Shown here piece by piece: positions 3,835 through 63,020 of a DNA stretch of 64,000 nt. The notes under the pieces were generated by a model. The model saw only the letters and a list, made by a program, of their open reading frames with translations. It made no database searches and was not told where the DNA came from. How positions within the stretch are numbered: position 1 is the stretch's first letter; each line of letters starts with the position of its first letter. This DNA is from Eledone cirrhosa. Its lineage: Eukaryota. The stretch is from positions 29,326,001-29,390,000 of the forward strand of contig OZ024757.1 of assembly GCA_964016885.1 (NCBI GenBank), read 5' to 3'. The translations under genes and the position numbers were made by a program.

Positions 3835-4445
3835 CGTGTGAGGGTGTGTGTGTATGTATGTGTATGTAAATGTTTGAGTATGTGTGCGTGCATGAGTGTG
3901 TGTAAACGTGTGCATGTGCGTGTGTGTGTGTAAAGTATATATGAGTTATGGCGACATTGGTGCAAGCCCTATCTTCTTTTAAGTTATCCTTGGTGGAGGG
4001 AGAGAGGAAAGTGGTAAGCAGAGGTGACTGCTAGTCTTCCACACAAACCCACTGTTCAGGCTTGTGCCTCGGTAAGGAACCTTCTGGGTGCAAACCGATG
4101 ATCACTATTACTGTGATATCAATTGGGTGGACTGTAGAAATTTAGATTTGAAATATATTGATTGTAAATGCTAGGCTAACATGAGAAGATGATATAACCT
4201 TCAGACGCATGGGCTGTGAATAATAAACATATCTATTGAGCCACAATTTCACGTCTACTTAATGATCTATCTTGATCTTTAACGTCATGATAATACGAGC
4301 AGATGATTTGAATTTTTTATCCATCAGCCAGTAACCTTGCAATCCTATCTGTTAGGTTAACTTGAGAAGATGATTTGACCTCTGGGTGCCTGTGCTGTGA
4401 ACAATAAACATATCTAGTGAGCCAGAATTTCACGTCTACTTAATA

Positions 4446-4633
4446 ATTGTTTCTACTTTAGGCAAAGGCCAGCAATTACCCAGTGCATTACTGGTACTTT
4501 ATTTTATCGACCCCGTAAGGATGAAAGGCAAAGTCAACCTCGGCGGGATTTGAACTCAGATCGTAAAGGGACATAGCTATGCTGGAAAGCATGGCGTTCG
4601 ACCCTCTACCGATACTGCCAATTCACTGCCCTT
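4446..4633 (-). mobile_element. tRNA-derived SINE (Meta-domain-like), full length
   Basis: A/B boxes, central GCCTTTCATCCTTACGGGGTCGATAAAAT, and target duplication TACTTAATAAT. Confidence 0.85.
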
Positions 4634-5075
4634 ACTTAATAATCTATGTTGATCTTAAACGTCACAATAACCCAGTAATTTTATCTACCGAACCACCGTT
4701 TTAATTATAGTTATTAATTGATGTCGAATTTAAACGCTAGAATATTACAAGTAGATGTTTTGAAACCCAGCAATCTTATCTACGGAGCCACAGTTTTGAT
4801 TCTAGTTATTAATCGATGCCGATCTTAAACGTTAGAATAGCACAAGTAGATGTTTTGAAACCCAGTAGTCTTATCTAATAGCCCAGCATATTGCTTTTTA
4901 TTAATAAAGTCAGATGACATTTTGTACGTGCTTTACTTTAGGTGAAGAGAACAGATCAAAGGAGTTTCAGTGTGTAGACAGATGAGGCAAGTGTAAAACA
5001 GCAAAGAGACAGTGGGTGATAGTGGTGTAGTCAGAGCAAGGCACAGAAACAGCAAAGACTTACAACACATTTCCA

Positions 5076-7128: not shown

Positions 7129-7398
7129 TTTCTCTTTCTCTTAATTTCGAGTATATTTTTGACCGGCCACCTTCCTGGTGGCAAGGTTGTAAAAGAGAAG
7201 AAATTGTCATCCCTTGAATCGCAAGAAGGTTTTGCAAATGTTGAAGGTGCCAGCTATGTCAGCCATTTGTAGTCTATGAATTAGGGATATTTTGGTTCAA
7301 GTGCTTTGATATATAACCTGTAGCTCCAATAATGATGGAATGAAGTTGAAGGTGTATCTTGGATACTAAATCTGCAAACTCCTCATCAAAGGTCCGTG
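7129..7398 (-). mobile_element. 3' end of a second, related REL-LINE subfamily
   Basis: Frameshifted [30 protein letters not shown]...GTFNICKTFLRF; its 3' end is joined to CATACATA. Confidence 0.65.
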
Positions 7399-7445
7399 TG
7401 TATGTATGTATGTATGTATGTATGTATGTATGTATGTATGTATGT

Positions 7446-8051
7446 CAGGTCACCAGTTGGTGCTACTGGTAACATGTTTCACAGTACAACCTGACTCATG
7501 GTCGGGTCGTTGGCGACTAAACTGGCAACCCCACCAAGGTTTCTTGGTGAGGAGGGTGACTTTAGACATCCTGCAGGAATAGAAACAAAACCTGTCAAAA
7601 GGGCAAAGGAGCTCTTAAGAGTCAATGGACATCCAAAATCACCGGGAGAGATGACCCCTTAGCCTTTGTCAAGGCAGAATTATAGAAGAAGGAAAACTCT
7701 GATATAACACCTGCAACTCTGATGGTATCCAATGATGTTGACTTGTTCTTCTTTTTGGTAAATATCATCTTGGTTAAGAGAGTGGGACTGGCTTTGTGCA
7801 GTTCCTTTGCTCACTATAAAAGCTTCACGGCACAGGCATTGCTTTATATCTGGAGATCTCTCTGCACTTGTCATCACATGGTACCATGGGCCCAGCACTA
7901 TGTCTCAATAATTGTCACAAGTGTAGTGTTTGTACCAGAGTTTTCAAGTCGCTGGCTGGACTAAAAGGTCACACTCGTTCAGCGCATTGGTGGGGGTTCT
8001 CCTACATGGATATAAAGTAGTGGCCGTACTCGAAAATGAGTTGGCAGCCAC
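7446..8051 (+). mobile_element. ~605-bp non-autonomous retroposon in (TATG)n
   Basis: A near-identical copy with the same ends lies at 33179-33786 (opposite strand), and a truncated copy at 45163-45537. Contains a LINE-5'UTR-like AGAAGGAAAACTCTGA motif. No credible ORF. Confidence 0.8.
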
Positions 8052-8136
8052 TATGTATGTATGTATGTATGTATGTATGTATGTATGTATGTATGTATGT
8101 ATGTTTGTATGTATGTATGTATGTATGTATACATAC

Positions 8137-14349: not shown

Positions 14350-14517
14350 ATTTCTAGTATAGGCACAAGTCCAGTACGTTACTGATGATTTATATTATCG
14401 AACCCGTAAGGATGACAGGTAAAGTTAACCTCGGCGGGATTTGAACTCAGTCCGTAAATGGACGTAACTCTATGCTGGAAAGCATGGCGTCCGATCCTCT
14501 ACCGATACTGCCAATCC
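14350..14517 (-). mobile_element. SINE, same family
   Basis: Homologous to 4446-4633. Confidence 0.8.
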
Positions 14518-15854
14518 ATATATATATATCACGGGGTTTTGCACTTTCCATCTACGAAATTCCCCTACGCAAAGTATTGGTCAACTGCAATAGAAGACAC
14601 TTACCCAAGGTACTATGCAGCAGAATTGAAACCAAAACCCATTGATTGGCCCTGTCGACGCCTATGGTCTTTTAATTTGTTTTTAATGTGGCAAGGTGTA
14701 GTTTGATGAAGATTTGGCTGCTATGTGTAGCAGATCGGTCTAGCAGATCGAGTGATCACGTAGAGGCTTCCATTTTGGTTCAAGAAATAGACTTCTACCC
14801 CAGGTTTCGAAAATTAGTCTCATTATTCTGGTTTCTGTCATAGAAACGTTAATAGCCTGTTTCGTTGATAGCCTGTTTCGTTGTTTCTTGTTCTTTGTCT
14901 ATATCAATTCATCTCATCTCTCTCTCTCTCTCTCTCTCGCTCTGTCTGTTCGTCTGTGTCTGTCTCTCTGACTGTCTCTCTCTGTCTGTCTCTGTTTCTC
15001 TTACTCTCAACTTCTCTTTCTCACTTCACGTATCATATAAATATACATCTCTCTACTCATTATCTCTCTTGCACTTTTCCACTAAACTTATCATATCACT
15101 ATGTTATTCTCTATCTGGCTGTCTGTTCTCTCTATATAAATATTTCACTACCTCTCTTCTCTGCTTCTTTCAATATCCATATATATCTTTCCCCAATTGC
15201 TTTCAATCTCCGTCTGTGTCTATGTCAATCACCATTTCTCTTTTTCCATCTCAGTATTTTATTACACGCTCTCTCTCTCCTCTCTATCTATGTATCTATC
15301 TAGCTTTCTCTCTCTCTCTCTATCCATCTCTCTCACACACTACAACTATGTCTATGTCACTATATCTCTTTCCTTCCTTCCACATTCTCTCTCTCTCACA
15401 TGCTTTCTTCTCTTTCCATTTCCAACAATCTGTCTTTCTATCAATACCTCTCTACATCTCTCTCTCACTCTCTCTTCCTCACCTCTCTCTCTCTCTCTCT
15501 CTTACACACACATGATCCCTCTGTTTCCATTTCCAACAACCTTTTTTTCTGTCAACCCCCCCCCCTCCCTACATCTCTCCCTCCTCTCTCATACTCTTTC
15601 TGTCATTCCTTCACAAAAACTCCCCCTCGTTGACTCACTCAGTCTCAGTCTTTCTCTCTCACAGTCTCAGTCTTTATCTCTATCTCTCCTCTCTCATTCT
15701 CTCTCTTTAACCCCCCCCCCCCTCACTCTCTCTGTTGCAAGACTTCTTTTCCATCAGTCATGATTTCGTGATAATGAAACAAACCCATTCATTGACTGTC
15801 TCTGCAGTGTTCCATTGAAGTAAAAATAATTAAGCCGATTATGTACCTACGATG

Positions 15855-19306: not shown

Positions 19307-19856
19307 TAAAATAACAGATTAAATTTAAGCAAAGAATCGCTGCTTTCACCCTTAACGGGATCTTCTGAAACTAACAAAGACAACCTGTGAACAAAGAAGT
19401 GAATATTTCAAAAAACGTTGCAACCGGAGGAAGACGATACTTTGGTTCGTGGAAACTTTCCCTGGCAAAGAACGGGAAAAAACGAAGATAATACGTCATT
19501 ATTTGGAGCGGTGAAAAATAATTACACGCAAAGACAAAACTACGTTTATGGTATAAAAGAAGTCGTTTACTAATATTCTATTAGGTGGTTCATAGAGACG
19601 TTCTCTGGCAATGAACGAAAAAAAAACGAAGATAATACGGCTCTATAAGGATAAATACATATAAGATATATAAGAACCGCAGAGCAAATATTTATTAAAA
19701 TAACAGATTAAAGTTTAAGCAAAGAATCGCTGCTTTCACCCTTAACGGGATCTTCTGAAACTAAAAAAGTCAATCTGTCAGATTGACAGAAGATCCTGTT
19801 AAGGGTGAAAGCAGCGATTCTTTGCTTAAACTTTAATCTGTTATTTTAATAAATAT
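19301..19856 (-). mobile_element. Penelope-type terminal-repeat remnant in partial-tandem plus inverted arrangement, carrying a U4A hammerhead-like fold
   Basis: Direct repeats 19301-19375 and 19690-19765, and an inverted copy at 19787-19856. Homologous to 24108-24233 and 62520-63020. Confidence 0.65.
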
Positions 19857-19862
19857 ATATAT

Positions 19863-22289
19863 ATGATGGTCTTTTACCTCTTCTTCTATAACATGGATTA
19901 TTACAACATAACCAATTCAACTAAAGACATTCCTATACCTGGTAAATCTGAATTCACCAAACTTCTAATTGAAAAAACTGACTCCTTCGTAAGAAGACTT
20001 AGATGGATAGCCTATTTCTATGACCAGCGCCTAAAAGGGAACTTCTATACCAAAGAACATAACTTCCTCGATCATCTATTTAATTCTAGAAGAAATCCTC
20101 CTTCCAACAAAAATCTAGTACAATTCGAGGAAGAGTTAACTAAAATAATAAAAAATCTTAAATTCAAGAGATACCCTTACAAAGGACAAGAGCACCTTGT
20201 AAATCTCAAGAACACAATTTCTAACCTAAATTCCTCAAAAAATGTTTTAGTCCACTCTGACAAAACCAATAACTTATATGGTATTTCCAAGGATAATTAT
20301 AACAACCTTATCCTAAAGGAACTTAGGAAAAAGTATCGTAAAACCAACCATGAAAATTTAGAATACATAAACCTTGAAGCCTCTGAGATTATGTCAAAAC
20401 TTGGCATTGAAAAAAAGACAGAACCATTCCTCCCAAGAACTCCGAGGATAAATCTCAAGGATCACAAAAACAATTTTCGCACTGAACTACCTGTTAGATT
20501 AATCGCCCCCTCTAAATCTGATCTGGGGGTTGTTAGTAAAGCCATCTTGGATAGAATTATCCCACAGGTTAGTTCTAATTGCTCTTCTTTGAACCTAAAT
20601 TTATGGTTTGGTACTTCTGAAGTGATTGGCTGGTTCAACAAATTGGATAATAAAAACAAACTAAAATTTATTCAATTTGATATTGCCAGCTACTATTCCT
20701 CCATTTCGCCTTCACTTCTCAACAATGCTCTATCTTTCGCACTTAAATATTCTGACATCACCACAGATGAACTTCACATCATCCTCACCGCACGTAAAAC
20801 CATCCTAGAGTTCAACAACGAATATTGGACCAGAGCCGATACCTCTAACAACTTCGACATCACAATGGGAGCATCCGATTCATCCCAATTGACTGATTTA
20901 ATTGGTATCTTTATTTTGAACTCTTTGAGTCGGAAAATTCCTCAACTTCGCGGTGGAATTTATCGTGACGATGGACTCTTTACTATCTTAAATTGCAATA
21001 TAGTTAACCTTAATATTATTAAGAACAATATACGTAATCTCTTTAACCAACATAACCTAAAAATTGAATTTGATAACAGTATCAAACTAGCTAATTTCTT
21101 GGATGTATCTCTTAATCTTGACACTGGCCTATATTACCCTTACCATAAAAACAATGAGAACCTAAATTATGTTAACTTTAAATCTAACCATCCTACCAAT
21201 ATCAAGAATGCTATAGTTAGTAATATTGGAAAAAGAATATCTAACATATCTTCTAATAAAAACATCTTTGATGCTAACGCCAATTACTATAATAACGCAC
21301 TTTCTAAAGCCGGCTATCCTGATAAAATCAAATATAGTAAAGAAACAAATTCTAGAAAAACTTACAGTAGAATAATTAATCATGATCATTCCAATAACTT
21401 TAATAAAAGACCTAGATACAAAAACATAATCTGGTATAATGCTCCTTTCTCCATCTCTATTAATAACAATATTCCTAAATTATTCTTTAGTGCCTTAAAT
21501 AAATGCTTCCCTCCCTCACATATCTATAGTAAAATATTTAACAAACACACCATAAAATTTTCTTATTCTACATCCTCCAATATTTCCAACATTATCTCTA
21601 AACACAACAATAAAATACTAAATACTAAATTTCTTCCTTCCAACACTGAATTTCATAATAACAGTAATAGTACTCCCGACGTCATTGTAAACCCTAGGCT
21701 AATTTCTGTAAACCCAAATACAACGTCAAAAAACACAACTTCGCTAAATGTTCATAAAACAAATCTAAATCAAGAAACTATTATTCCTATCGCAAACAAC
21801 TTCTCCAATCCAATTCCTTCTATAGATAACACTAGGTCACTCATTAATAATCTCTCTAATTGCAACTGCCGCATTAAAAATAAATGTCCTCTCAACAACC
21901 ATTGTCTTGATAAAAACTTAATTTATGAATGTAAAGTTATAACTAGCACCAATTCCTTCACCTACTTTGGCTCCACTTCCACCTCTTTTAAAGCTCGTCT
22001 CTATAATCATCATTCATCTTTTAAATACAAACTTAAAAGAACCAACACGGCTCTCTCAGAACTCATATGGTCCTTGAAAGACAAAAACATTAAATATACC
22101 ATCTTTTGGAAGAAGGTTTCTTCTGCGTCTACATACTTGAACAGCTCTCTATCTAAAATCTGTAATCTCTGCCTAAATGAAAAATTTACCATTATCTCTA
22201 ATCTAGATTCTATAATAAATAGACGTACAGATTTGTTTTCTATCTGCTTGCATAAATTCCATAAGACTTTTCACAAAGTATACAGCTAA
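19863..22289 (+). CDS. Penelope-like retroelement polyprotein (reverse transcriptase + GIY-YIG endonuclease), Naiad-type; likely start ATG 19893
   Basis: Uninterrupted 808-aa ORF. N-terminal STKDIPIP and SDKT motifs. RT motifs QFDIASYYSSI, ITMGAS, YRDDG and NFLDV. Thumb region YVNFKSNHP. Cys linker CNCRIKNKCPLNNHC. Endonuclease motifs LIYECK...TYFGST...FKARLYNH and CNLCLNEK...NRR...CLH. Confidence 0.95.
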   Translation: MMVFYLFFYNMDYYNITNSTKDIPIPGKSEFTKLLIEKTDSFVRRLRWIAYFYDQRLKGNFYTKEHNFLDHLFNSRRNPPSNKNLVQFEEELTKIIKNLKFKRYPYKGQEHLVNLKNTISNLNSSKNVLVHSDKTNNLYGISKDNYNNLILKELRKKYRKTNHENLEYINLEASEIMSKLGIEKKTEPFLPRTPRINLKDHKNNFRTELPVRLIAPSKSDLGVVSKAILDRIIPQVSSNCSSLNLNLWFGTSEVIGWFNKLDNKNKLKFIQFDIASYYSSISPSLLNNALSFALKYSDITTDELHIILTARKTILEFNNEYWTRADTSNNFDITMGASDSSQLTDLIGIFILNSLSRKIPQLRGGIYRDDGLFTILNCNIVNLNIIKNNIRNLFNQHNLKIEFDNSIKLANFLDVSLNLDTGLYYPYHKNNENLNYVNFKSNHPTNIKNAIVSNIGKRISNISSNKNIFDANANYYNNALSKAGYPDKIKYSKETNSRKTYSRIINHDHSNNFNKRPRYKNIIWYNAPFSISINNNIPKLFFSALNKCFPPSHIYSKIFNKHTIKFSYSTSSNISNIISKHNNKILNTKFLPSNTEFHNNSNSTPDVIVNPRLISVNPNTTSKNTTSLNVHKTNLNQETIIPIANNFSNPIPSIDNTRSLINNLSNCNCRIKNKCPLNNHCLDKNLIYECKVITSTNSFTYFGSTSTSFKARLYNHHSSFKYKLKRTNTALSELIWSLKDKNIKYTIFWKKVSSASTYLNSSLSKICNLCLNEKFTIISNLDSIINRRTDLFSICLHKFHKTFHKVYS

Positions 22290-23183
22290 TATTCAATTCT
22301 TTATCAATTTAGAATCTTTTCTCAAAGGCACATATACATACACCTCTTTTAAAATATACCCATCTTCCTACCTTACTCTATAATACTTGTTTACTCATTA
22401 CCCTCACTCTATCTTCACCTTGTAAAATCCTTCGTAACATATACATTTGTTTTTGACGCTAGATTATTCATCCTTAATTTATTATTTTTTTCTCCCCATC
22501 ATCTAACTCATTCTTAATACATATTAACTCTTTCTTCGCACATATTATCAATTCCTTCAATATAGAAACCTTAACTTCACATTATTTTTCTCAAATCCTT
22601 CAATACACAACCATTAATAATTTTTTCTCTTCGTTAATTTTCAAATTTCCATAATACTTGTAAACATACACACAATTTTTTTTGACGTTAGAATATTCAT
22701 CCGCAATACATTATTTTTTTCTCTCTATCATCAAACTTTTTAATCTCAATACATATTAACTCCCTCTCCTTCTTCGTACATATTTCTCCCTTCGTTAATT
22801 TTCAAATTCTTTTAATTTATACATTATCTTCCAACGGTTTTCAACCTCTCTATGTAAAACAATATATCTTTTCTCAGTTATAAAAACTATCTCTTTCTCT
22901 CTATCACCCATCTCTCCCTCTCCACCTTCACTCTCATCTCCTCCCCTTTTTTTCATCCTCCCCCCCCCTCTCTAAACAAAATATTTTCCCAATATCACAC
23001 ATCAATCTAAAATTACTTTTCATATGTTGATTTAAAACTGAACTATCCACAAGTGTTTTTTAGCCTTCATATCATGTCCTCCTGTTTTATCTGATGAAAT
23101 CACAAATATTATTGCATGATGATGTTTGTTTTTGAAATGCGCATAATAAAATACATGGAACTCCTTTAACCATCTTTTGATCT
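19865..23183 (+). mobile_element. Near full-length Penelope-like element (ORF, ~0.8 kb 3' UTR, hammerhead-containing terminal region) inserted in (TA)n
   Basis: Both ends abut TA microsatellite. The sense strand is G-poor throughout. The 3' UTR has an internal duplication (~22380-22560 vs ~22650-22790) and a hammerhead at 23083-23153. Confidence 0.85.
23083..23153 (+). ncRNA. Minimal type I hammerhead ribozyme of the Penelope-like element
   Basis: Stem I TGTTTTAT/ATAAAATA; core CTGATGA (23091-97); stem II ACAAATATT/GATGTTTGT; GAAA (23134-37); palindromic stem III TGCGCA; cleavage triplet AUA. Confidence 0.85.
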
Positions 23184-28332: not shown

Positions 28333-28532
28333 NNNNNNNNNNNNNNNNNNNNNNNNNNNNNNNNNNNNNNNNNNNNNNNNNNNNNNNNNNNNNNNNNNNN
28401 NNNNNNNNNNNNNNNNNNNNNNNNNNNNNNNNNNNNNNNNNNNNNNNNNNNNNNNNNNNNNNNNNNNNNNNNNNNNNNNNNNNNNNNNNNNNNNNNNNNN
28501 NNNNNNNNNNNNNNNNNNNNNNNNNNNNNNNN
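28333..28532. other. Assembly gap (200 N)
   Basis: Run of N. Confidence 1.
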
Positions 28533-30017: not shown

Positions 30018-30053
30018 TCTTCTGATGAAGGACTACCGTCCGAAACGTTAAGA
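30018..30053 (+). ncRNA. Minimal type I hammerhead ribozyme
   Basis: TCTT-CTGATGA-A-GGAC TACC GTCC-GAAA-CG-TT-AAGA; palindromic ACGT stem III; GUU site. Confidence 0.75.
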
Positions 30054-31608: not shown

Positions 31609-31654
31609 TTGTGTGTGTGTATGTGTGTTTGTGAGTTATATAAAAATATTCAGG

Positions 31655-31750
31655 ACCCGGACGGCTGAGCTCCGGCCGTTTCGACAGCTAGATCATAACT
31701 AAGCCCCCAGTATTAGTACGGCAAGAATCTAGCTGAACTTATCAAGGGGT
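31655..31750 (-). ncRNA. Type I hammerhead ribozyme with U3:A8 core variant
   Basis: Minus strand reads ACCCC-TTGATAA-stem II (CAGCTAGAT/ATCTAGCTG)-GAAA-CGGC/GCCG stem III-GUC-CGGGT. The sibling copy at 56559 gives GGGGT, a perfect stem I partner. Confidence 0.75.
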
Positions 31751-31874
31751 GCCGTCCATATATGGGTATGCTGTCAAAGCAAAAAAGCAAAAAAAAATCT
31801 AAGTAAAATGTCTTAAAAGTTTATTGCTTTTCTTACCTTCACCTAATACTATATATCGGTCGCAAATTCAGACA

Positions 31875-31988
31875 GAAGGAGCAGCATGAAATAAAGTGTC
31901 TTGCTCAAGGTCATAACGCATCGCCCGGTCCGGGAATCGAACTCACAACTTCACGATTGCGAATCCAATGCTCTAACCACTCAGCCAC
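31875..31988 (-). mobile_element. tRNA-derived SINE head of a second family
   Basis: Minus strand GTGGCTGAGTGGTTAGAGC (A box), GAGTTCGATTCCC (B box), then CCTTGAGCAAGACAC. Confidence 0.8.
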
Positions 31989-32690
31989 TGAAGGCAGACT
32001 CTTTCTAAACCTGCCACGTATTGGAACTGAAAACAAACCCAAAGCACTGGTTTGTTAAGCCAACTCCATCTCAATATAGTTAAGCTATTTGATACAATGA
32101 TATATGTTTATGTACAAACGTAAGAGAGATGTAAATATATACGCTGTGTAGATTTTCTATCAGTAAGTTAACCGTTGTATTTGTTTTACATAAGACAAAT
32201 GACTGAAACCAGTAAAAGAATTGAAGAGGAAAAGAATTAAAGACTGCAAGAATAAAAGAATAAACTGTTCGTGTGAACCACACTAATGAAACAGACGTTG
32301 TGGTATTTGGAAAGTGTCATTCTGCCAATAAAAACACAAAGATGGGTTGTAGTTCAGATATTTAGTAATTCAATGAGTTGGCTATGTCATTCGTTACACG
32401 TCTGTAGTCTATTTATTGAAATTATCGTAGACCGTGTAGAGACAAACACATTCACATAGCCGAGAATTAATAGAGAAAACTAAAATACGACAATTGTTTA
32501 TCCTTTTATGGTCAAATGTCGGGCCTAATACGCTCACACACCTGCAAACACACATACGTAACGAAAGTTATCTACATATATATATATATTAGCGCGTGTA
32601 AATATATATATATATGGGATAACAAGTTATCGTTATAGGTAATCCAGTTAGAGGTTGTGAGTACTCTGATGTGTTGACTAGAGGTAAATA

Positions 32691-32875
32691 ATTGTTTCTA
32701 CTTTTTGGCACAAGGCCAGCAAATACCCAGTACATTACTGGTACTTTATTTTATCGATCCCGTAAGGATGAAAAGCAAAGTCAACCTCGGCGGGATTTGA
32801 AATCAGACCATAAAGGGCCGTAACTCTTTGCTGCAAAGCATGGCGTCCGACCCTCTACCGATACGGCCTCTCCAC
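32691..32875 (-). mobile_element. SINE, same family
   Basis: Homologous to 4446; TSD AGAGGTAAATAAT. Confidence 0.85.
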
Positions 32876-33178
32876 CATCAGAGGTAAATAATGTATTGGA
32901 GTTCGAGTGACGCGACCTCAAGCGATTAGCGAACTCTAGACTCACCTGATCAACGAAACAATTGTCAGTACTTTAAATAAAGCCCTTGTACAGCCAACCA
33001 TGTTACTCTTCATTCTTTAACTACATATATATATATATACTAAATACATACAAGTAGAGTCTTCCTTACCAAATATGGCGAATTTGTAAAGACGTTTAAA
33101 GGTGTGCGTTAAATAAATATACATTTATTTCAGTTCGTTGATGTCTACATACATACATACATACATACATACATACAT

Positions 33179-33786
33179 GGTGGCTGCCAATTCGTTTTTG
33201 AGCACGGCCACTACTTTATATCCATGTAGGAGAACCCCTACCGATGCGCTGAACGAGTGTGACTTCTCAGTCCAGCCAGCGACTTAAAAACTCTGATACA
33301 AACACTACACTTGTAAAAATTATTGACACATAGTGCTGGGCCCATGGTACCATGTGATGACAAGTGCAGAGAGATCTCCAGATATAAAGCAATGCCTGTG
33401 CCGTGAAGCTTTTATAGTGAGCAAAGGCACTGCACAAAGCCAGTCCCACTCTCTTAACCAAGATGATATTTACCAAAAAGAAGAACAAGTCAACATCATT
33501 GGATACCATCAGGGTTGCAGGTGTTATATCATAGTTTTCCTTCTCCTAGAATTCTGCATTGACAAAGGCTAAGGGGTCATCTCTCCCGGTGATTTTGGAT
33601 GGCCATTGACTCTTAAGAGCTCCTTTGCCCTTTGACAGGTTTTGTTTTTAGTCCTGCAGGATGTCCAAAGTCACTCTCCTTACCAAGAAACCTTGGTGGG
33701 GTTGCCAGTTTAGTCGCCAACGACCCGACCATGAGACAGGTTGTATTGGGATACATGTTACCAGTAACACCATGTGGTGACCCGAC
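33179..33786 (-). mobile_element. Second full copy of the 605-bp element
   Basis: Reverse complement of 7446-8051; (TACA)n on both sides. Confidence 0.85.
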
Positions 33787-33880
33787 ATACATACATACAT
33801 ACATACATACATACATACATACATACGTATATACGATTTCTCTATAAGGGTATTGCAAATAATATCTGTAGACAATGTGA

Positions 33881-35945: not shown

Positions 35946-35977
35946 GATCTCGGGAATTTTACCAGCCCTAGATATAT

Positions 35978-36425
35978 AATTGTTTCTAGTTTAGGCACAA
36001 GGCCAGCAATTATAAGTGGAAGGGAAACCCGATTAAATCGACCTCAGTGCATTACTGGTATTTTATTTACCGACCCCGTAAGGATGAAAAGCAAAGCTAA
36101 CCTATAAGCCTATATGATTGTTTCTACGTTTGGCACAAGGCCAGCGATTACCCTTGCCTATTACTGGTATTTATTTTATCGAACCCGTAAGGATGAAAGG
36201 CAAAATTAACCTCGGCGGGATTTGAACTCAGACTATAAAGGGGCATAACTCTTTGCTGCAAAGCATGGCGTCCGACCCTCTACCGATACTGCAATCCACC
36301 GCCCTTATAAGCTGATGTAATTGTTTCTACTTTTGGCACAAGGCCAGCAATTACTCCAGTGTATTACTGGTACTTTATTTTATCGACCCCGTAAGGATGA
36401 AAGGCAAAGTTAACCTGGGCGGTAT
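35978..36425 (-). mobile_element. Three tandem SINE copies (two truncated, one full)
   Basis: Repeated ATTGTTTCTA..GGCACAAGGCCAGC units at ~35979, ~36117 and ~36320. Confidence 0.85.
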
Positions 36426-41242: not shown

Positions 41243-41506
41243 ATAAGCCCCTTCGGTCACCAATGACCATGGTTTTGCGCCTAGAAAGTTCCTCTCCAGC
41301 AGTCGCCAATGCATACAAACCTCCCCTCTCTACGCCATCGATGTTGTACTAGGGAAAGGCAATGGCTGATACAGCTTGGTACCAATAACTTATTTCTACA
41401 GCTGAGTGAACTGAAGCAACGTCTTAAACAAAGATCATGACGCACCGCCCGCTCCAGGGTTAGAACTCACAACCTTACGATTGTGTGGTCAACAATTTAA
41501 CCACTA
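41243..41506 (-). mobile_element. Diverged SINE of the second family
   Basis: Head homologous to 31915-31985, followed by body and tail. Confidence 0.65.
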
Positions 41507-41714
41507 TAACCCTATATATATATATATATATATATATACATAGAGAGAGAGAGAGAGAGAGAGAGAGAAAGTTGTTCAAAATCGGGACGGCAGAGCTTAA
41601 GCTGTTTCAACGGTTATTTGTGAGAAATAGCCGTCTATTTCCCACGCTACTACCCAAAGTATTGAGTACTCTGGTGCGTTATTGTCCACCTGGTTCTTTA
41701 CCACACTTTCTTCG

Positions 41715-41754
<40 letters not shown>

Positions 41755-44871: not shown

Positions 44872-45010
44872 CCAGGGCGTGTAAGGTGAAACTCGTGTAG
44901 GTTCACCCAGGTGAGCACTCGATATTTAGGTTCACATGACTGGCGGGGTGTAGAGCTAGACAGAATTTAATATAATAATACAAGAACGATTTGTTATATA
45001 TATATATATA

Positions 45011-45142
45011 TAACGAAGGAAGTGTGGTAAGGAACCAGGTGGACCGTAACGCACCAGGGTACTCGATACTTAGGGTAGTAGAGTGGGCATTAGGAAAAGA
45101 GTCAGGACCCTGTCGGCTGAGCTCCGGCCGTTTCGATAGCTA
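45011..45142 (-). mobile_element. Fragment of the U3:A8-hammerhead family (3' half of ribozyme plus tail)
   Basis: CGGCTGAGCTCCGGCCGTTTCG is shared with 31662 and 56566. The tail is homologous (inverted) to 41636-41717. Confidence 0.7.
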
Positions 45143-45162
45143 TATATATATGAGTATGCATA

Positions 45163-45537
45163 CTGCCAACTCGTTTTCGAGTACGGCCACTACTTTATAT
45201 CCATGTAGGAGAACCCCTACCGATGCGCTGAACGAGTGTGACTTTCTAGTCCAGCCAGAGACTTGAACACTCTGGTACAAACACTACACTTGTGACAATT
45301 ATTGACACCTAGTGCTGGGCCCATGGTAACATGTGACGACAAGTGCAGAGAGATCTCCAGATATAAAGCAATGCCTGCGCCGTGAAGCTTTTATAGTGAG
45401 CAAAGGCACTGCACAAAGCCAGTCCGACTCTCTTAACCAAGATGATATTTACCAAAAAGAAGAACAAGTCAACACCATTGGATACCATCAGGGTTGCAGG
45501 TGTTATATCATAGTTTTCCTTCTCCTAGAATTCTGCC
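45163..45537 (-). mobile_element. 5'-truncated copy of the 605-bp element
   Basis: Matches 33185-33558; adjoins (TACA)n. Confidence 0.85.
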
Positions 45538-45541
45538 TACA

Positions 45542-46740: not shown

Positions 46741-46811
46741 CACTAGTTGTGCTAAAAGTAGAAACCATTATTATACAAATCGTATTTTACCAACCTCGTA
46801 AGGATGAGAGG

Positions 46812-46946
46812 TTAGTTTTGCCTTTCATCATAACGTGGTCGATGAAATAAAGTACCAGTCGCACACTGGGGTCGATTTAATCGACTTCCCCCCTTCTTTC
46901 AAACTTGCTGGCATTGTGCCTAAATTAGAAACAATTAGAAACAATT
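46812..46946 (+). mobile_element. SINE 3' portion
   Basis: GCCTTTCATC...AAGTACCAG...TGTGCCTAAATTAGAAACAATT. Confidence 0.75.
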
Positions 46947-49654: not shown

Positions 49655-49751
49655 GAGCGAGAGAGCGAGAGAGAGAGAGAGCGAGAGAGAGAGAAGATGC
49701 ATTGTATGTAGATAAGTATGAATGTATTAATGATATATATATATATAAAAT

Positions 49752-49830
49752 AATTGTTTCTACTTTAGGCACAAGGCCAGCAAATAACCCAGTGCATTAC
49801 TAGTACTTTATTTTATCGACCCCGTAAGGA
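49752..49830 (-). mobile_element. SINE 3' fragment
   Basis: Homologous to 4446-4520. Confidence 0.8.
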
Positions 49831-51072
49831 TCGGTATATATAAAATAATATATGTATATAAATATATATAAAATAATATGTGTATATATATATAAAATAA
49901 TATATGTATATATATATAAAATAATATATGTATATATATATATTATATAATATATATATTTATTTATGGAAATAATATATATATATATATATATACAAAA
50001 TAATATATATATTTATATATATATATACAAAATAATATATATATTTATATATATATATACAAAATAATATATATATTTATATATATATATATATACAAAA
50101 TAATATATATATATTTATAAAAATAATATATATATATATAATATATATAGATATTACTTATATTATATATATGATATATATAATATATATGCGTCACGAC
50201 TCAATAAACGTAATGAAGGCATAACAAATCGTCCTTATTATATATATATATACATACATACATATATATATACACATACATGTATATATATGTATGTATA
50301 ATATATATATATAAGCTTGTATATATTGTTAAACTTAAAGAAATATAGGAAGAATGAGAAAGAGTTAAGAGGAAATAAATAGGGGTGGATTTAATAGTAA
50401 TATACCCAGTGAATGAGAAACAGAGCGAAAATCGGAATGTTTAGTCTCTTCAACGCAAACGCACACGTCATTCAGATGAGATTGAATAGCAGAGGGAAGT
50501 AAACGAACGGTAAATCGATTTGACAAGGGACATTAAATAACAACAATCAAAAAAAGTTCACGAGACACTACTCGACAATGACAAATACACTAATAACAAA
50601 AACAAGAAACAACACCAAGAGCAAGACTAATAAGAGAAGTAGTAATAAAAACAAACAGAATAAACATAAAAATAGAAATAGAAAATAAACTGTTTACAAC
50701 AGATGTAAGAGTTCAACGAATAATATTATTCCTTCGAAGAAACCTACAAAGCAAATAGCAAACCGCTAGAGAGGGAAAAATACTAAACAAGACGAAATAA
50801 CAACAGTGACTTACGAAAGAATGAAATAATAAAAAATAAGTGAAATGTGCAAGACCATAAAATTCGACACGGCCATTGGAAAGTTGCAATTCCCAAGTGA
50901 ATACGTCAAAATAGCCATTGTTTAACGAAATACCCAGATTCAGTAAACGCAAAGCGTGACAGCTAGAGTCGGCCCTCCCTCTCTAATGTGAGATATTTTG
51001 CTATAATCCACTCCTATTTACTCGCTTTAAAGTTATAGTCTACAATTGTTTTATCAACCGTAATATGTTTGT

Positions 51073-53981: not shown

Positions 53982-54174
53982 AAGGGCGGTGGATTGGCAG
54001 TATCGGTAGAGGGTCGGACACCATGCTTTGACGCATAGAGTTACTGTCCTTGCTATTCTGAGTTTAAATCCCGCCGAGGTTAACTTTGCCTTTCATCCTT
54101 ACGGGGTCGATAAAATAAAGTACCAGTAATGCACTGGGTAATTGCTGGCCTTGTGCCATAAGTAGAAACAATTA
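53982..54174 (+). mobile_element. tRNA-derived SINE, full length
   Basis: A box TGGCAGTATCGG, B box GAGTTTAAATCC, central domain, 3' end GTAGAAACAATT. Confidence 0.9.
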
Positions 54175-54510
54175 TTTTATATATTTTATATACACAATAA
54201 AACTCCTTTTTTAAAAAAAAAGTGTTCCTCTCATGTTTTCAATAATGTTACTTTAACGGATCCCTATAACCTCTGTTTTGTATAAAACCTTGTTCCCTTT
54301 ACAAATATATATATTTATATACTCAGTATGTGCGAAGAAGACGGTATGATCGAACCCATATATTATGTCTGATAGTATACAGTTCTGTAACTGCTATAGA
54401 CCAGTCAATATATAGATGTGAACAACCCTCGGAAACGATCGTAAAACGATGAATAAGATATGTAAAATAACTTTCCTTTGTTATCATTGTTAAAAAAAAA
54501 CTAATATGTA

Positions 54511-54559: not shown

Positions 54560-55025
54560 AATGATTTCTACTATAGGCACAAAGCCAGAAATTCTTTTTT
54601 GGGGGAAATCAATTAAATCGACCGTAAGGATGGAAGGCAAAGCTAACCTCTAATAATAATTGTTTCTACGTTTGGAACAAGACCAGCAATTATCACAGTG
54701 TATTACTGGTACTTTATTTTGTCGACACCGCAAGGATGAAAGGCAAAGCAAACCTCGGCGGGATATGAACTCACAAGTTAAAGGGCTATGCCGCGAAGTT
54801 AAACTATGCTGCGAAGCATGTCGATAATATTCGATTCGTTTGCAAGTAAACAAAGAGAGAAAGCGAGTGAAGAGAGAAAACTGATCCCGGTACTAGAGTT
54901 ATACTTTATTTGGCGGCACCGAAAGGATGAACAGCAAAGTTGAGCACGGTGGACTCCGATCTCAGAAAACGCAAGGACGGAATGAATATCACTGCTCTAT
55001 CCGATCTTCTAACGATACGGCCATT
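54560..55025 (-). mobile_element. Cluster of three SINE pieces
   Basis: Repeated AAGGATG(A/G)AAGGCAAAG-type motifs at ~54627, ~54732 and ~54923. Confidence 0.7.
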
Positions 55026-56265: not shown

Positions 56266-56704
56266 GTGTTGTGTGTGTGTGTGTGTATGTATCGTATAAT
56301 GATTACCGCTCTAAAGGTTTGCACATTTCGTTTCTACTTGACTTCTTCAAAATCTAATATAGGATAGATGTGTAAGTAAATTGCCTCACAAAGTAAACAA
56401 CTCTTACATTTAATGCGATTACATATATTTGTCTCTGTTTATGTACATATATGAGCATATATACATGAATATTCATTATCTATCCATCTATCTATCTATC
56501 TATTTATCTATTTATCTATCTATCTATTTATGTATCTATCTATAGGAGAAAGGTCAGGACCCCGACGGCTGAGCTCCGGCCGTTTCGTCAGCTAGTATGG
56601 TTCAGCTATTATCTTACCACACCTTTGTACACATATATATCTTTATATATCTATCTATATATCTTTATCTATCTATCTATCTATATATATATCTATATAG
56701 ATAT

Positions 56705-57154: not shown

Positions 57155-57450
57155 GTTGGCTTTGTGCCTAAACCAGAAACAATTATTATTAGAGGTTAGC
57201 TTTGCATTTCATCCATACTGGGTCGATGAAATAAAATACCAATAATGCACTGGGGGTCGATTTAATCGACATTCTCTTCCCCCTAAAAGTGTTGGCCTTG
57301 TGCTTGAAGTAGAAACAATTATTATTAAAGGTTAACTATGCCTTCGATCATTACGGGGTTGATACAATAAAGTACCAGTAATGTACTGTTGTCGATTTGA
57401 TCGACTTTCCTCTCCCCTTGACATTGTTGGCCTTGTGCCTAAAGTAGATA
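57155..57450 (+). mobile_element. Tandem SINE 3' portions
   Basis: Three TTGTGC...AGAAACAATT-type ends. Confidence 0.75.
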
Positions 57451-57735
57451 TAATTAATATTATCATCAATTAGAGGTTCCTGGGTTTTCAAATCCAACTT
57501 GTTCTCAATCACCTGCTTCCTCACAACGGATAATTCTCTTAAAGCTTTCATTAATATATGCATACATTATGCCAGCCAGGTTGACTATCTCACACTTACG
57601 GGGACACATTTATATTCATACACTATATATATGTGTGTGTATATATATTTATATATATACAAAATGTATATATATATACAAAATGGCGTAGGACAGAACA
57701 AAGGAGAGGCACAAAAACAAAGAAAAGAATCCCCA

Positions 57736-57778
57736 GTCACTGAAGAGGTCACAGAATGTGTGACGAAAGAACTTTGAC
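57736..57778 (+). ncRNA. Minimal type I hammerhead ribozyme
   Basis: GTCA-CTGAAGA-G-GTCAC AGAATGT GTGAC-GAAA-GAAC-TT-TGAC. Confidence 0.75.
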
Positions 57779-58703: not shown

Positions 58704-58754
58704 GGCTTCCTGAAGATTTCATCTGAATGAAACAGTACTAGTCCTGTAGAAGCT
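58704..58754 (+). ncRNA. Type I hammerhead ribozyme
   Basis: GGCTTC-CTGAAGA-T(TTC ATCT GAA)T-GAAA-CAG TACTAGTC CTG-TA-GAAGCT; 6-bp stem I; GUA site. Confidence 0.75.
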
Positions 58755-60024: not shown

Positions 60025-60112
60025 TCCTCGACTACGTAGTTTCGTGGCATAAACAAAAACAATATATCATAAAGACAGAGTCCTTGTCAGGTCTGCCGAC
60101 TTATCAAGAGGA
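60025..60112 (-). ncRNA. Type I hammerhead ribozyme with U3:A8 core variant
   Basis: Minus strand reads TCCTC-TTGATAA-GT(C)GGCA...TGCCAC-GAAA-CTACGTAG-TC-GAGGA. Stem I is a perfect 5 bp, stem III is palindromic, and the site is GUC. Confidence 0.8.
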
Positions 60113-62519: not shown

Positions 62520-63020
62520 GGGAATCATTCGGTTTCCTAATAGAATTTTAGTCTACGACTTCATTTATACCATGAACGTGGTTTTGTCTTTGCGTGTAAT
62601 TGTTTTCAACGCTCCATATTATGACGTATTATCTTTGTCTTTATCGGGGTCGATAAAATACGGGGTCGATAAAATAAAGTACCAGTAATGCACTGGGTAA
62701 TTGCTGGCCTTGTGCCTAAAGTAGAAACAATTATCTTTGTCTTTATCCGTTCTTTGCCAGGGAACGTTTCCACGAACCAAAGTATCGTCTTCCTGTCTTC
62801 CTTCGGCTGCAACGTTTTTTGAAATATTTACTTCTGAGTTCACAGATTGATTTTTTTAGTTTCAGGAGATCCCGTTAAGGGTGAAAGCAGCGATTCTTTG
62901 CTTAAACTTTAATCTGTTATTTTAATAAATATTTGCTCTACGGTTCTTATATATTTGATATATATTTATCCTTATCGAGCCATCTTTGGATTTTAGTCTT
63001 CAAATTTATTATTATTATTA
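62520..63020 (+). mobile_element. Longer copy of the 19301 family, interrupted by a SINE
   Basis: Reverse complement of 19301-19585 plus the 3' tail. Hammerhead-like fold at 62858-62908. Confidence 0.75.
62646..62729 (+). mobile_element. 5'-truncated SINE with 18-bp TSD
   Basis: TSD ATTATCTTTGTCTTTATC at 62628-62645 and 62730-62747. Confidence 0.85.

Follow-up and report, generated by a model that had tools for sequence, protein, structure and literature searches.

The 64,000-nucleotide stretch of DNA analyzed here (the window), which is microsatellite-rich and of animal type, carries on its minus strand at 31655..31750 a type I hammerhead with a U3:A8 core, the form that most members of an abundant dispersed repeat carry; the repeat is probably the terminal repeat (pLTR) of a Penelope-like retrotransposon (PLE) or a short non-autonomous derivative of one. 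The existence of this abundant family and of its U3:A8 core is confirmed; the swap itself is already published, and what is new here is the host, the abundance, and the larger helices II and III.

All the boxes of a type I hammerhead (Y3-UGA-N-R8-A9 with the 3:8 pair, GAAA, and U16.1-H17) are complete on the minus strand from 31750 to 31655, where a preliminary description had claimed a full hammerhead with the core UUGAUAA; the assignment draws on the sequence boxes, a descriptor, the family letters, and folds. Along that strand, the helix I 5′ arm (31750-31746) leads into the core UUGAUAA (31745-31739; U3 at 31745 and A8 at 31740), which is followed by G10.1 (31738), C11.1 (31683), GAAA (31682-31679), helix III (31678-31662; four G-C pairs closing a 9-nt loop that contains GAGCUC), U16.1 (31661), C17 (31660), and the helix I 3′ arm (31659-31655), with the predicted cut between 31660 and 31659. 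Together with A15.1:U16.1, the four G-C pairs make helix III 5 bp long. The 9-bp stem II of the preliminary description exists, but not directly after the core: in order from the core, helix II consists of G10.1:C11.1, a 2×1 pyrimidine internal loop, a helix of 9-10 bp, and a loop of ~30 nt. Pair 1.1:2.1 of this copy is a C·C mismatch. As judged from the depth profile and loose ends of sequencing data, the stretch common to the repeat family is 31643..31790 (minus strand), comprising a U-rich 5′ flank, the hammerhead, and a short 3′ flank; the window copy is without the 3′ tail described below and continues into a (TA)/(CA) microsatellite.

CUGANGA motif searches had been expected to miss this motif, and Rfam cmscan (E ≤ 10) returned no hammerhead family on 31655..31750 or on a second U3:A8 motif at 60107; over the whole window, the 150 of 387 Rfam matches listed were microsatellite-driven only. 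Using a relaxed type I descriptor, written post hoc once the motif was known, we obtained two U3:A8 matches in the window versus one in 60 block-wise dinucleotide shuffles. Metagenome, viral, and prokaryote genome contigs were searched with an exact 22-nt pattern of the family, without a match, and a gapped core pattern matched at least 119 metagenome loci (58 of 64 parts scanned), none of which had the three helices or matched the PLE protein of the window.

The letters of the family core were read from four of 23 listed sequencing runs, aligned to 31632-31830 at a likeness of at least 80%, with differences tabulated from 4%. From organism A, 5,481 contigs of 16.3 million records aligned in run X1 and 6,441 reads of 12.5 million in run X21; the runs of organisms B and D gave two and zero aligned contigs, none over the hammerhead, which is not proof of absence. 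Most of the aligned organism A sequences are less than 95% identical to the window copy and thus represent many loci, although we do not take summed contig depths as copy numbers. UUGAUAA is the majority core in both organism A runs at this likeness, which bears out the multi-copy, non-coding family proposed earlier. The 40 of 87 variant rows listed include none within 31729-31747. All five A>G and all three T>C places of X1 are among the listed rows, none of them at 31745 or 31740; because these totals are accounted for elsewhere, C3 and G8 are each below 4% in the X1 contigs at least 80% alike, whereas a divergent C3:G8 subfamily under that floor would escape the count. In X21, the rows outside those listed include four A>G and two T>C changes, so the core may vary there at low frequency.

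The X1 figures bear directly on the possibility, raised in the preliminary description, that the family consensus is CUGAUGA and the window copy carries two chance mutations, or that the motif is a chance match. Fourteen listed differences over ~130 nt do separate the window copy from the read majority, but an ancestral CUGAUGA is refuted among sequences at least 80% alike, and neither the shuffled windows nor the helix-less metagenome matches suggest that letters and helices of this kind often coincide; we give this reading almost no probability. CpG decay was also considered as the origin of U3:A8 and was rejected, as neither position lies in a CpG and the state is that of the majority.

Both halves of the hammerhead are linked in single molecules, since 2,692 X21 molecules begin at 31770 and the X21 depth is at least 3,000 from 31764 to 31646; the majority letters at 31770 are GCATGC, which we take to be an SphI site. 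The family letters also improve the helices of the window copy. Pair 1.1:2.1 is restored by the letter that 96% of X1 and 89-91% of X21 have at 31659, and the family letter at 31695 does the same for one further pair of helix II. The minority variants listed in 31660-31694 are CpG transitions in six of six cases, including one at C11.1 in 6-17%, the pattern that post-insertion decay would leave. Those at 31726, 31728, and 31748 each keep their pair by a one-sided change; the read table, being unphased, showed no two-sided covariation in the helices. To judge from loose ends at 31694, loop II is a different one in at least one divergent subfamily.

When the majority letters were folded, the hammerhead was the predicted minimum-energy structure, with three helices around the core and helix I open. 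Predicted pair probabilities were 0.77-0.85 for helix I, 0.89-0.90 for helix III, and 0.89-1.00 for the long helix II, with a value of ~0.1 (0.11) for G10.1:C11.1. This fold, which is a mosaic of unphased letters, had a z-score of −2.1 (18 of 500 shuffles as stable) versus −0.04 for the window copy. The family is predicted to self-cleave. In the window copy, folded in its own context, the hammerhead helices are possible but predicted to be out-competed. A 7-nt arm at 31751..31757 (minus strand) pairs over its whole length with 31665-31659. Three letters that are rare in the family (31751, 31753, and 31659) complete this 7-bp helix over the cleavage site; its predicted probability is 0.95-1.0 and it beats the hammerhead by 4-5.5 kcal/mol. 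Changing these three letters alone brought back the predicted hammerhead fold. The copy at 31745 is predicted to misfold and is probably a decayed, dead one. The 7-bp inverted repeat itself (31751-31757/31659-31665) may reflect either quasi-palindrome correction by template switching, with changes on both arms, or chance. For helix III formed as a dimer, the calculated gain was −15.5 kcal/mol, matched by 191 of 5,040 loop permutations, and the dimer stability through the palindromic loop III was equalled by 744 of 5,040; these modeled energetics are weak evidence for a dimer mode.

Another reading is that the hammerhead was catalytically dead already at amplification and that UUGAUAA was retained by common descent only. 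Likeness among the copies of one burst is no proof of selection, X1 covers the 3′ half of the hammerhead far more deeply than the 5′ half, three of the four window copies are without the 5′ half of the core, and metazoan PLE hammerheads cleave poorly in vitro (PMC4209133). The majority form nevertheless keeps all core letters and three helices, U3/A8 hammerheads are active in vitro (PMC3088659), and the unrelated 60107 motif has the same swapped pair within wholly different helices, and we regard death before amplification as very unlikely.

The other three window copies are partial. Recurrences of the 3′ half had been noted at 45102-45142, at 56554-56595, and degenerately at ~41585-41615, and all three were found, with 88% identity over 51 nt (45095-45145), 95% over 42 nt (56554-56595), and a degenerate match at the third; the UUGAUAA half was absent from each of these copies (45 kb, 56.6 kb, and 41.6 kb) in a search of the window. 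The 45-kb copy (45095..45145, minus strand) is 5′-truncated with the hammerhead 3′ half only, has altered letters at U16.1 and 1.1, starts in (TA)n, and is accompanied by a family 3′ tail of ~100 bp (44995..45093, minus strand) that ends in (TA)n. The letters of this tail are those of the loose ends of family reads at 31638/31643, and on their 3′ side the family reads exit either into (TA)n or into letters matching 45093-44995. The 56.6-kb copy (56543..56595, minus strand) is 5′-truncated and has no tail; upstream of it lies a possible inverted tail-end piece (56614..56654, plus strand), a weak match of 76% over 41 nt (E 0.009) that is partly TA repeat. Just upstream of the degenerate half (41585..41615, minus strand) lies an inverted family 3′ tail (41635..41733, plus strand; 90% over 99 nt). 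An inverted tail therefore appears, by sequence likeness, to precede two of the truncated copies, clearly at 41.6 kb and weakly at 56.6 kb.

Truncation of the 5′ end, an inverted tail near the repeat, and a tail at one end form the observed pattern of a PLE pLTR. EN+ PLEs have 5′-truncated copies, an inverted copy beside the repeat, a tail at one end, and microsatellite targets (PMC8557442); their tails measure 30-40 bp versus ~100 bp in the window family. With its (TA)n flanks, partial presence of the tail, and inverted tails, the family has ends that resemble those of the PLE terminal repeats to which it had been tentatively assigned. From PLE biology (PMC4209133, PMC6765202), we infer that a transcript of the element, arising from tandem elements, would self-cleave after C17, either as a monomer, for which the 5-bp helix III is predicted to be stable, or as a dimer via the palindromic loop III. 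The cut would thereby delimit the RNA to be copied into (TA)n microsatellites by a PLE reverse transcriptase/GIY-YIG endonuclease. Many half-hammerheads would be the outcome of frequent 5′ truncation and inversion, and the inserted copies would then decay, mainly at CpG.

The family might instead be an independent unit of ~250 bp or more, either a non-LTR retrozyme or SINE-like, that is transcribed from tandem arrays elsewhere in the genome, is processed by its hammerhead into circles, and is dispersed as monomers. Like animal non-LTR retrozymes (PMC7229834; bioRxiv 10.64898/2026.07.22.740005), it is non-coding, has a type I hammerhead and a high copy number, and is probably related to PLE pLTRs. 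Its hammerhead is full-sized and predicted to be monomer-competent, unlike the minimal PLE motifs; the type I hammerheads of mussel retrozymes are without the usual loop 1-2 letters (PMC7229834); and Xenopus monomers are evenly dispersed (bioRxiv 10.64898/2026.07.22.740005). No ORF or reverse transcriptase/endonuclease remnant adjoins any of the four window copies, tblastn with the window PLE protein finding itself only. By definition, however, animal non-LTR retrozymes have circular RNAs and 150-450-bp units in head-to-tail tandem, and we saw no such tandem repeat at the 31655..31750 locus or among the four window copies and no joints among the aligned reads, so that the label retrozyme-like given earlier lacks its defining feature here. 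The listed loose ends enter (TA)n or the tail, the 45-kb tail ends in (TA)n and not in a next unit, and inverted tails are the insertion pattern of PLEs. We consider a retrozyme unlikely; because retrozymes derive from PLE pLTRs (bioRxiv 10.64898/2026.07.22.740005), this reading overlaps the preferred one of a PLE pLTR or its short derivative.

A PLE resides in the same window. Its intact ORF of 819 aa (19830-22289, plus strand) has RWI and DKT motifs like those of the Hydra clade, and its nearest proteins are 31-39% identical, one of them named from Argonauta; Pfam gave nothing on this ORF or on the frames near 60107. The element includes an inverted repeat (19688-19856), and its C3:G8 hammerhead motif, in which helix III is palindromic, lies at 23085-23155 (plus strand; C3 at 23091). 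We rejected it as the direct owner of the U3:A8 family, as its own hammerhead is a different one and it has no DNA similarity to the family. At least five C3:G8 minimal hammerheads share the window with the U3:A8 family and the intact ORF. Further C3:G8 hammerhead-like motifs lie at 30022 (plus strand) and 53392 (minus strand), which belong to one 173-bp family and are 89% alike, at 58710 (plus strand), at ~56965 (minus strand; poor helix I), and at 57740 (plus strand), the last of which may be a chance match.

The second type I hammerhead with a UUGAUAA core (60025..60112, minus strand; U3 at 60107 and C17 at 60030) occurs as a single copy in the window, is unrelated in sequence to the 31745 motif, and has in common with it just the core plus a helix II that begins with G-U-pyrimidine. 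Five base pairs of helix I are possible, helix III is fully palindromic, and the predicted monomer pair probabilities do not exceed 0.37; the ~300 bp upstream of it have no match elsewhere in the window. This motif suggests that U3:A8 marks more than one family in the window. That an unrecognised PLE lineage in this animal group has fixed a full-sized, monomer-competent U3:A8 module (UUGAUAA with G-U-pyrimidine) across unrelated repeat families is a bolder proposal that we hold to be distinctly unlikely; since the published searches of PLEs relied on CUGANGA descriptors, clades on record as hammerhead-less could be among such elements, and, if the proposal were true, the family could give abundant self-cleaved or circular RNAs.

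The preliminary description had implied that U3:A8 is rare or novel, which the literature does not bear out. The variant was found through the Cercyon PLEs of Schistosoma mansoni, with ~1,300 hits (Cervera and De la Pena 2014, PMC4209133), and the alignment in that paper has UUGAUAA and UUGAAAA cores in S. mansoni, UUGAAGA in Saccoglossus, and C3:G8 in three mollusc rows. The S. mansoni motif assayed there belongs to family Sm1 and had low activity; the portion of the paper available to us states no assay of the U3-A8 variant. Perreault et al. 2011 (PMC3088659) report C3/G8 to U3/A8 covariation in several natural examples and state that such ribozymes have in vitro activity; this is the same compensatory swap as in our family, and the available portion of that paper gives no animal repeat family with U3/A8 as its majority core. 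Like the S. mansoni U3-A8 PLE hammerheads (PMC4209133), those of the window family are of type I with a U3-A8 core (one S. mansoni core being UUGAUAA), the usual first helix II pair G10.1-C11.1, a short helix I, a U-rich 5′ flank, and palindromic letters in helix III/loop 3, and are mostly single dispersed motifs from truncated elements. The S. mansoni motifs are minimal, however: helix III is almost absent, and an additional nucleotide separates A9 from 10.1. The window family lacks this nucleotide and has a helix II of ~11 bp above the 2×1 loop with a ~30-nt apical part, and a 5-bp helix III with a 9-nt loop; the minimal hammerheads published for metazoan PLEs have smaller helices. In fungal and protist PLEs, type I hammerheads likewise have a large, stable helix III that permits a monomer fold, but they occur in EN-deficient telomeric PLEs, and the available portion of that paper (PMC4209133) describes none with a U3-A8 core.

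We found no report of the family in literature on hammerheads and octopus, U3-A8, or Penelope variants, although Luense et al. (PMC5785218) may list further ones, and the available main text of an Octopus vulgaris repeat annotation (PMC13282606) contains neither "ribozyme" nor "hammerhead". Short family strings were absent from the curated Naiad/Chlamys/Hydra set, including the Octopus consensus sequences of Naiad PLEs, in the supplement of Craig et al. (PMC8557442), searched as exact strings, for which line ends can hide a match. As the U3:A8 family confirms, counts made with CUGANGA descriptors and Rfam models fall short of the ribozymes present in animal repeats. Being a high-copy natural family, it also offers a chance to assay the U3:A8 core in the context of an animal retroelement; it reveals no new ribozyme chemistry and no new kind of element.

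Several other repeats lie near the hammerhead copies or elsewhere in the window. A LINE-like 3′ fragment is present in three ~95% identical copies (7395-8085, 33146-33835, and 45163-45538), which appear young, have a C2H2-like end, and are presumably RTE-like; between the copy at 45163-45538 and the 45-kb hammerhead half there is just a short TA run. Next to the hammerhead copy, on its upstream side, 31860-32000 (minus strand) is what we take to be a tRNA-like SINE head with A/B-box-like letters; ARAGORN called no tRNA at this stretch, which matches 41431-41483 with 81% identity over 53 nt. Another short interspersed repeat family has at least 10 copies in the window, some of them tandem (4441-4634, 14371-14518, 32685-32876, 35972-36425, 46804-46937, 49734-49831, 53982-54192, 54617-54786, 57155-57462, and 62659-62737). 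An assembly gap of 200 N at 28333-28532 adjoins a long (TA)-rich low-complexity stretch.
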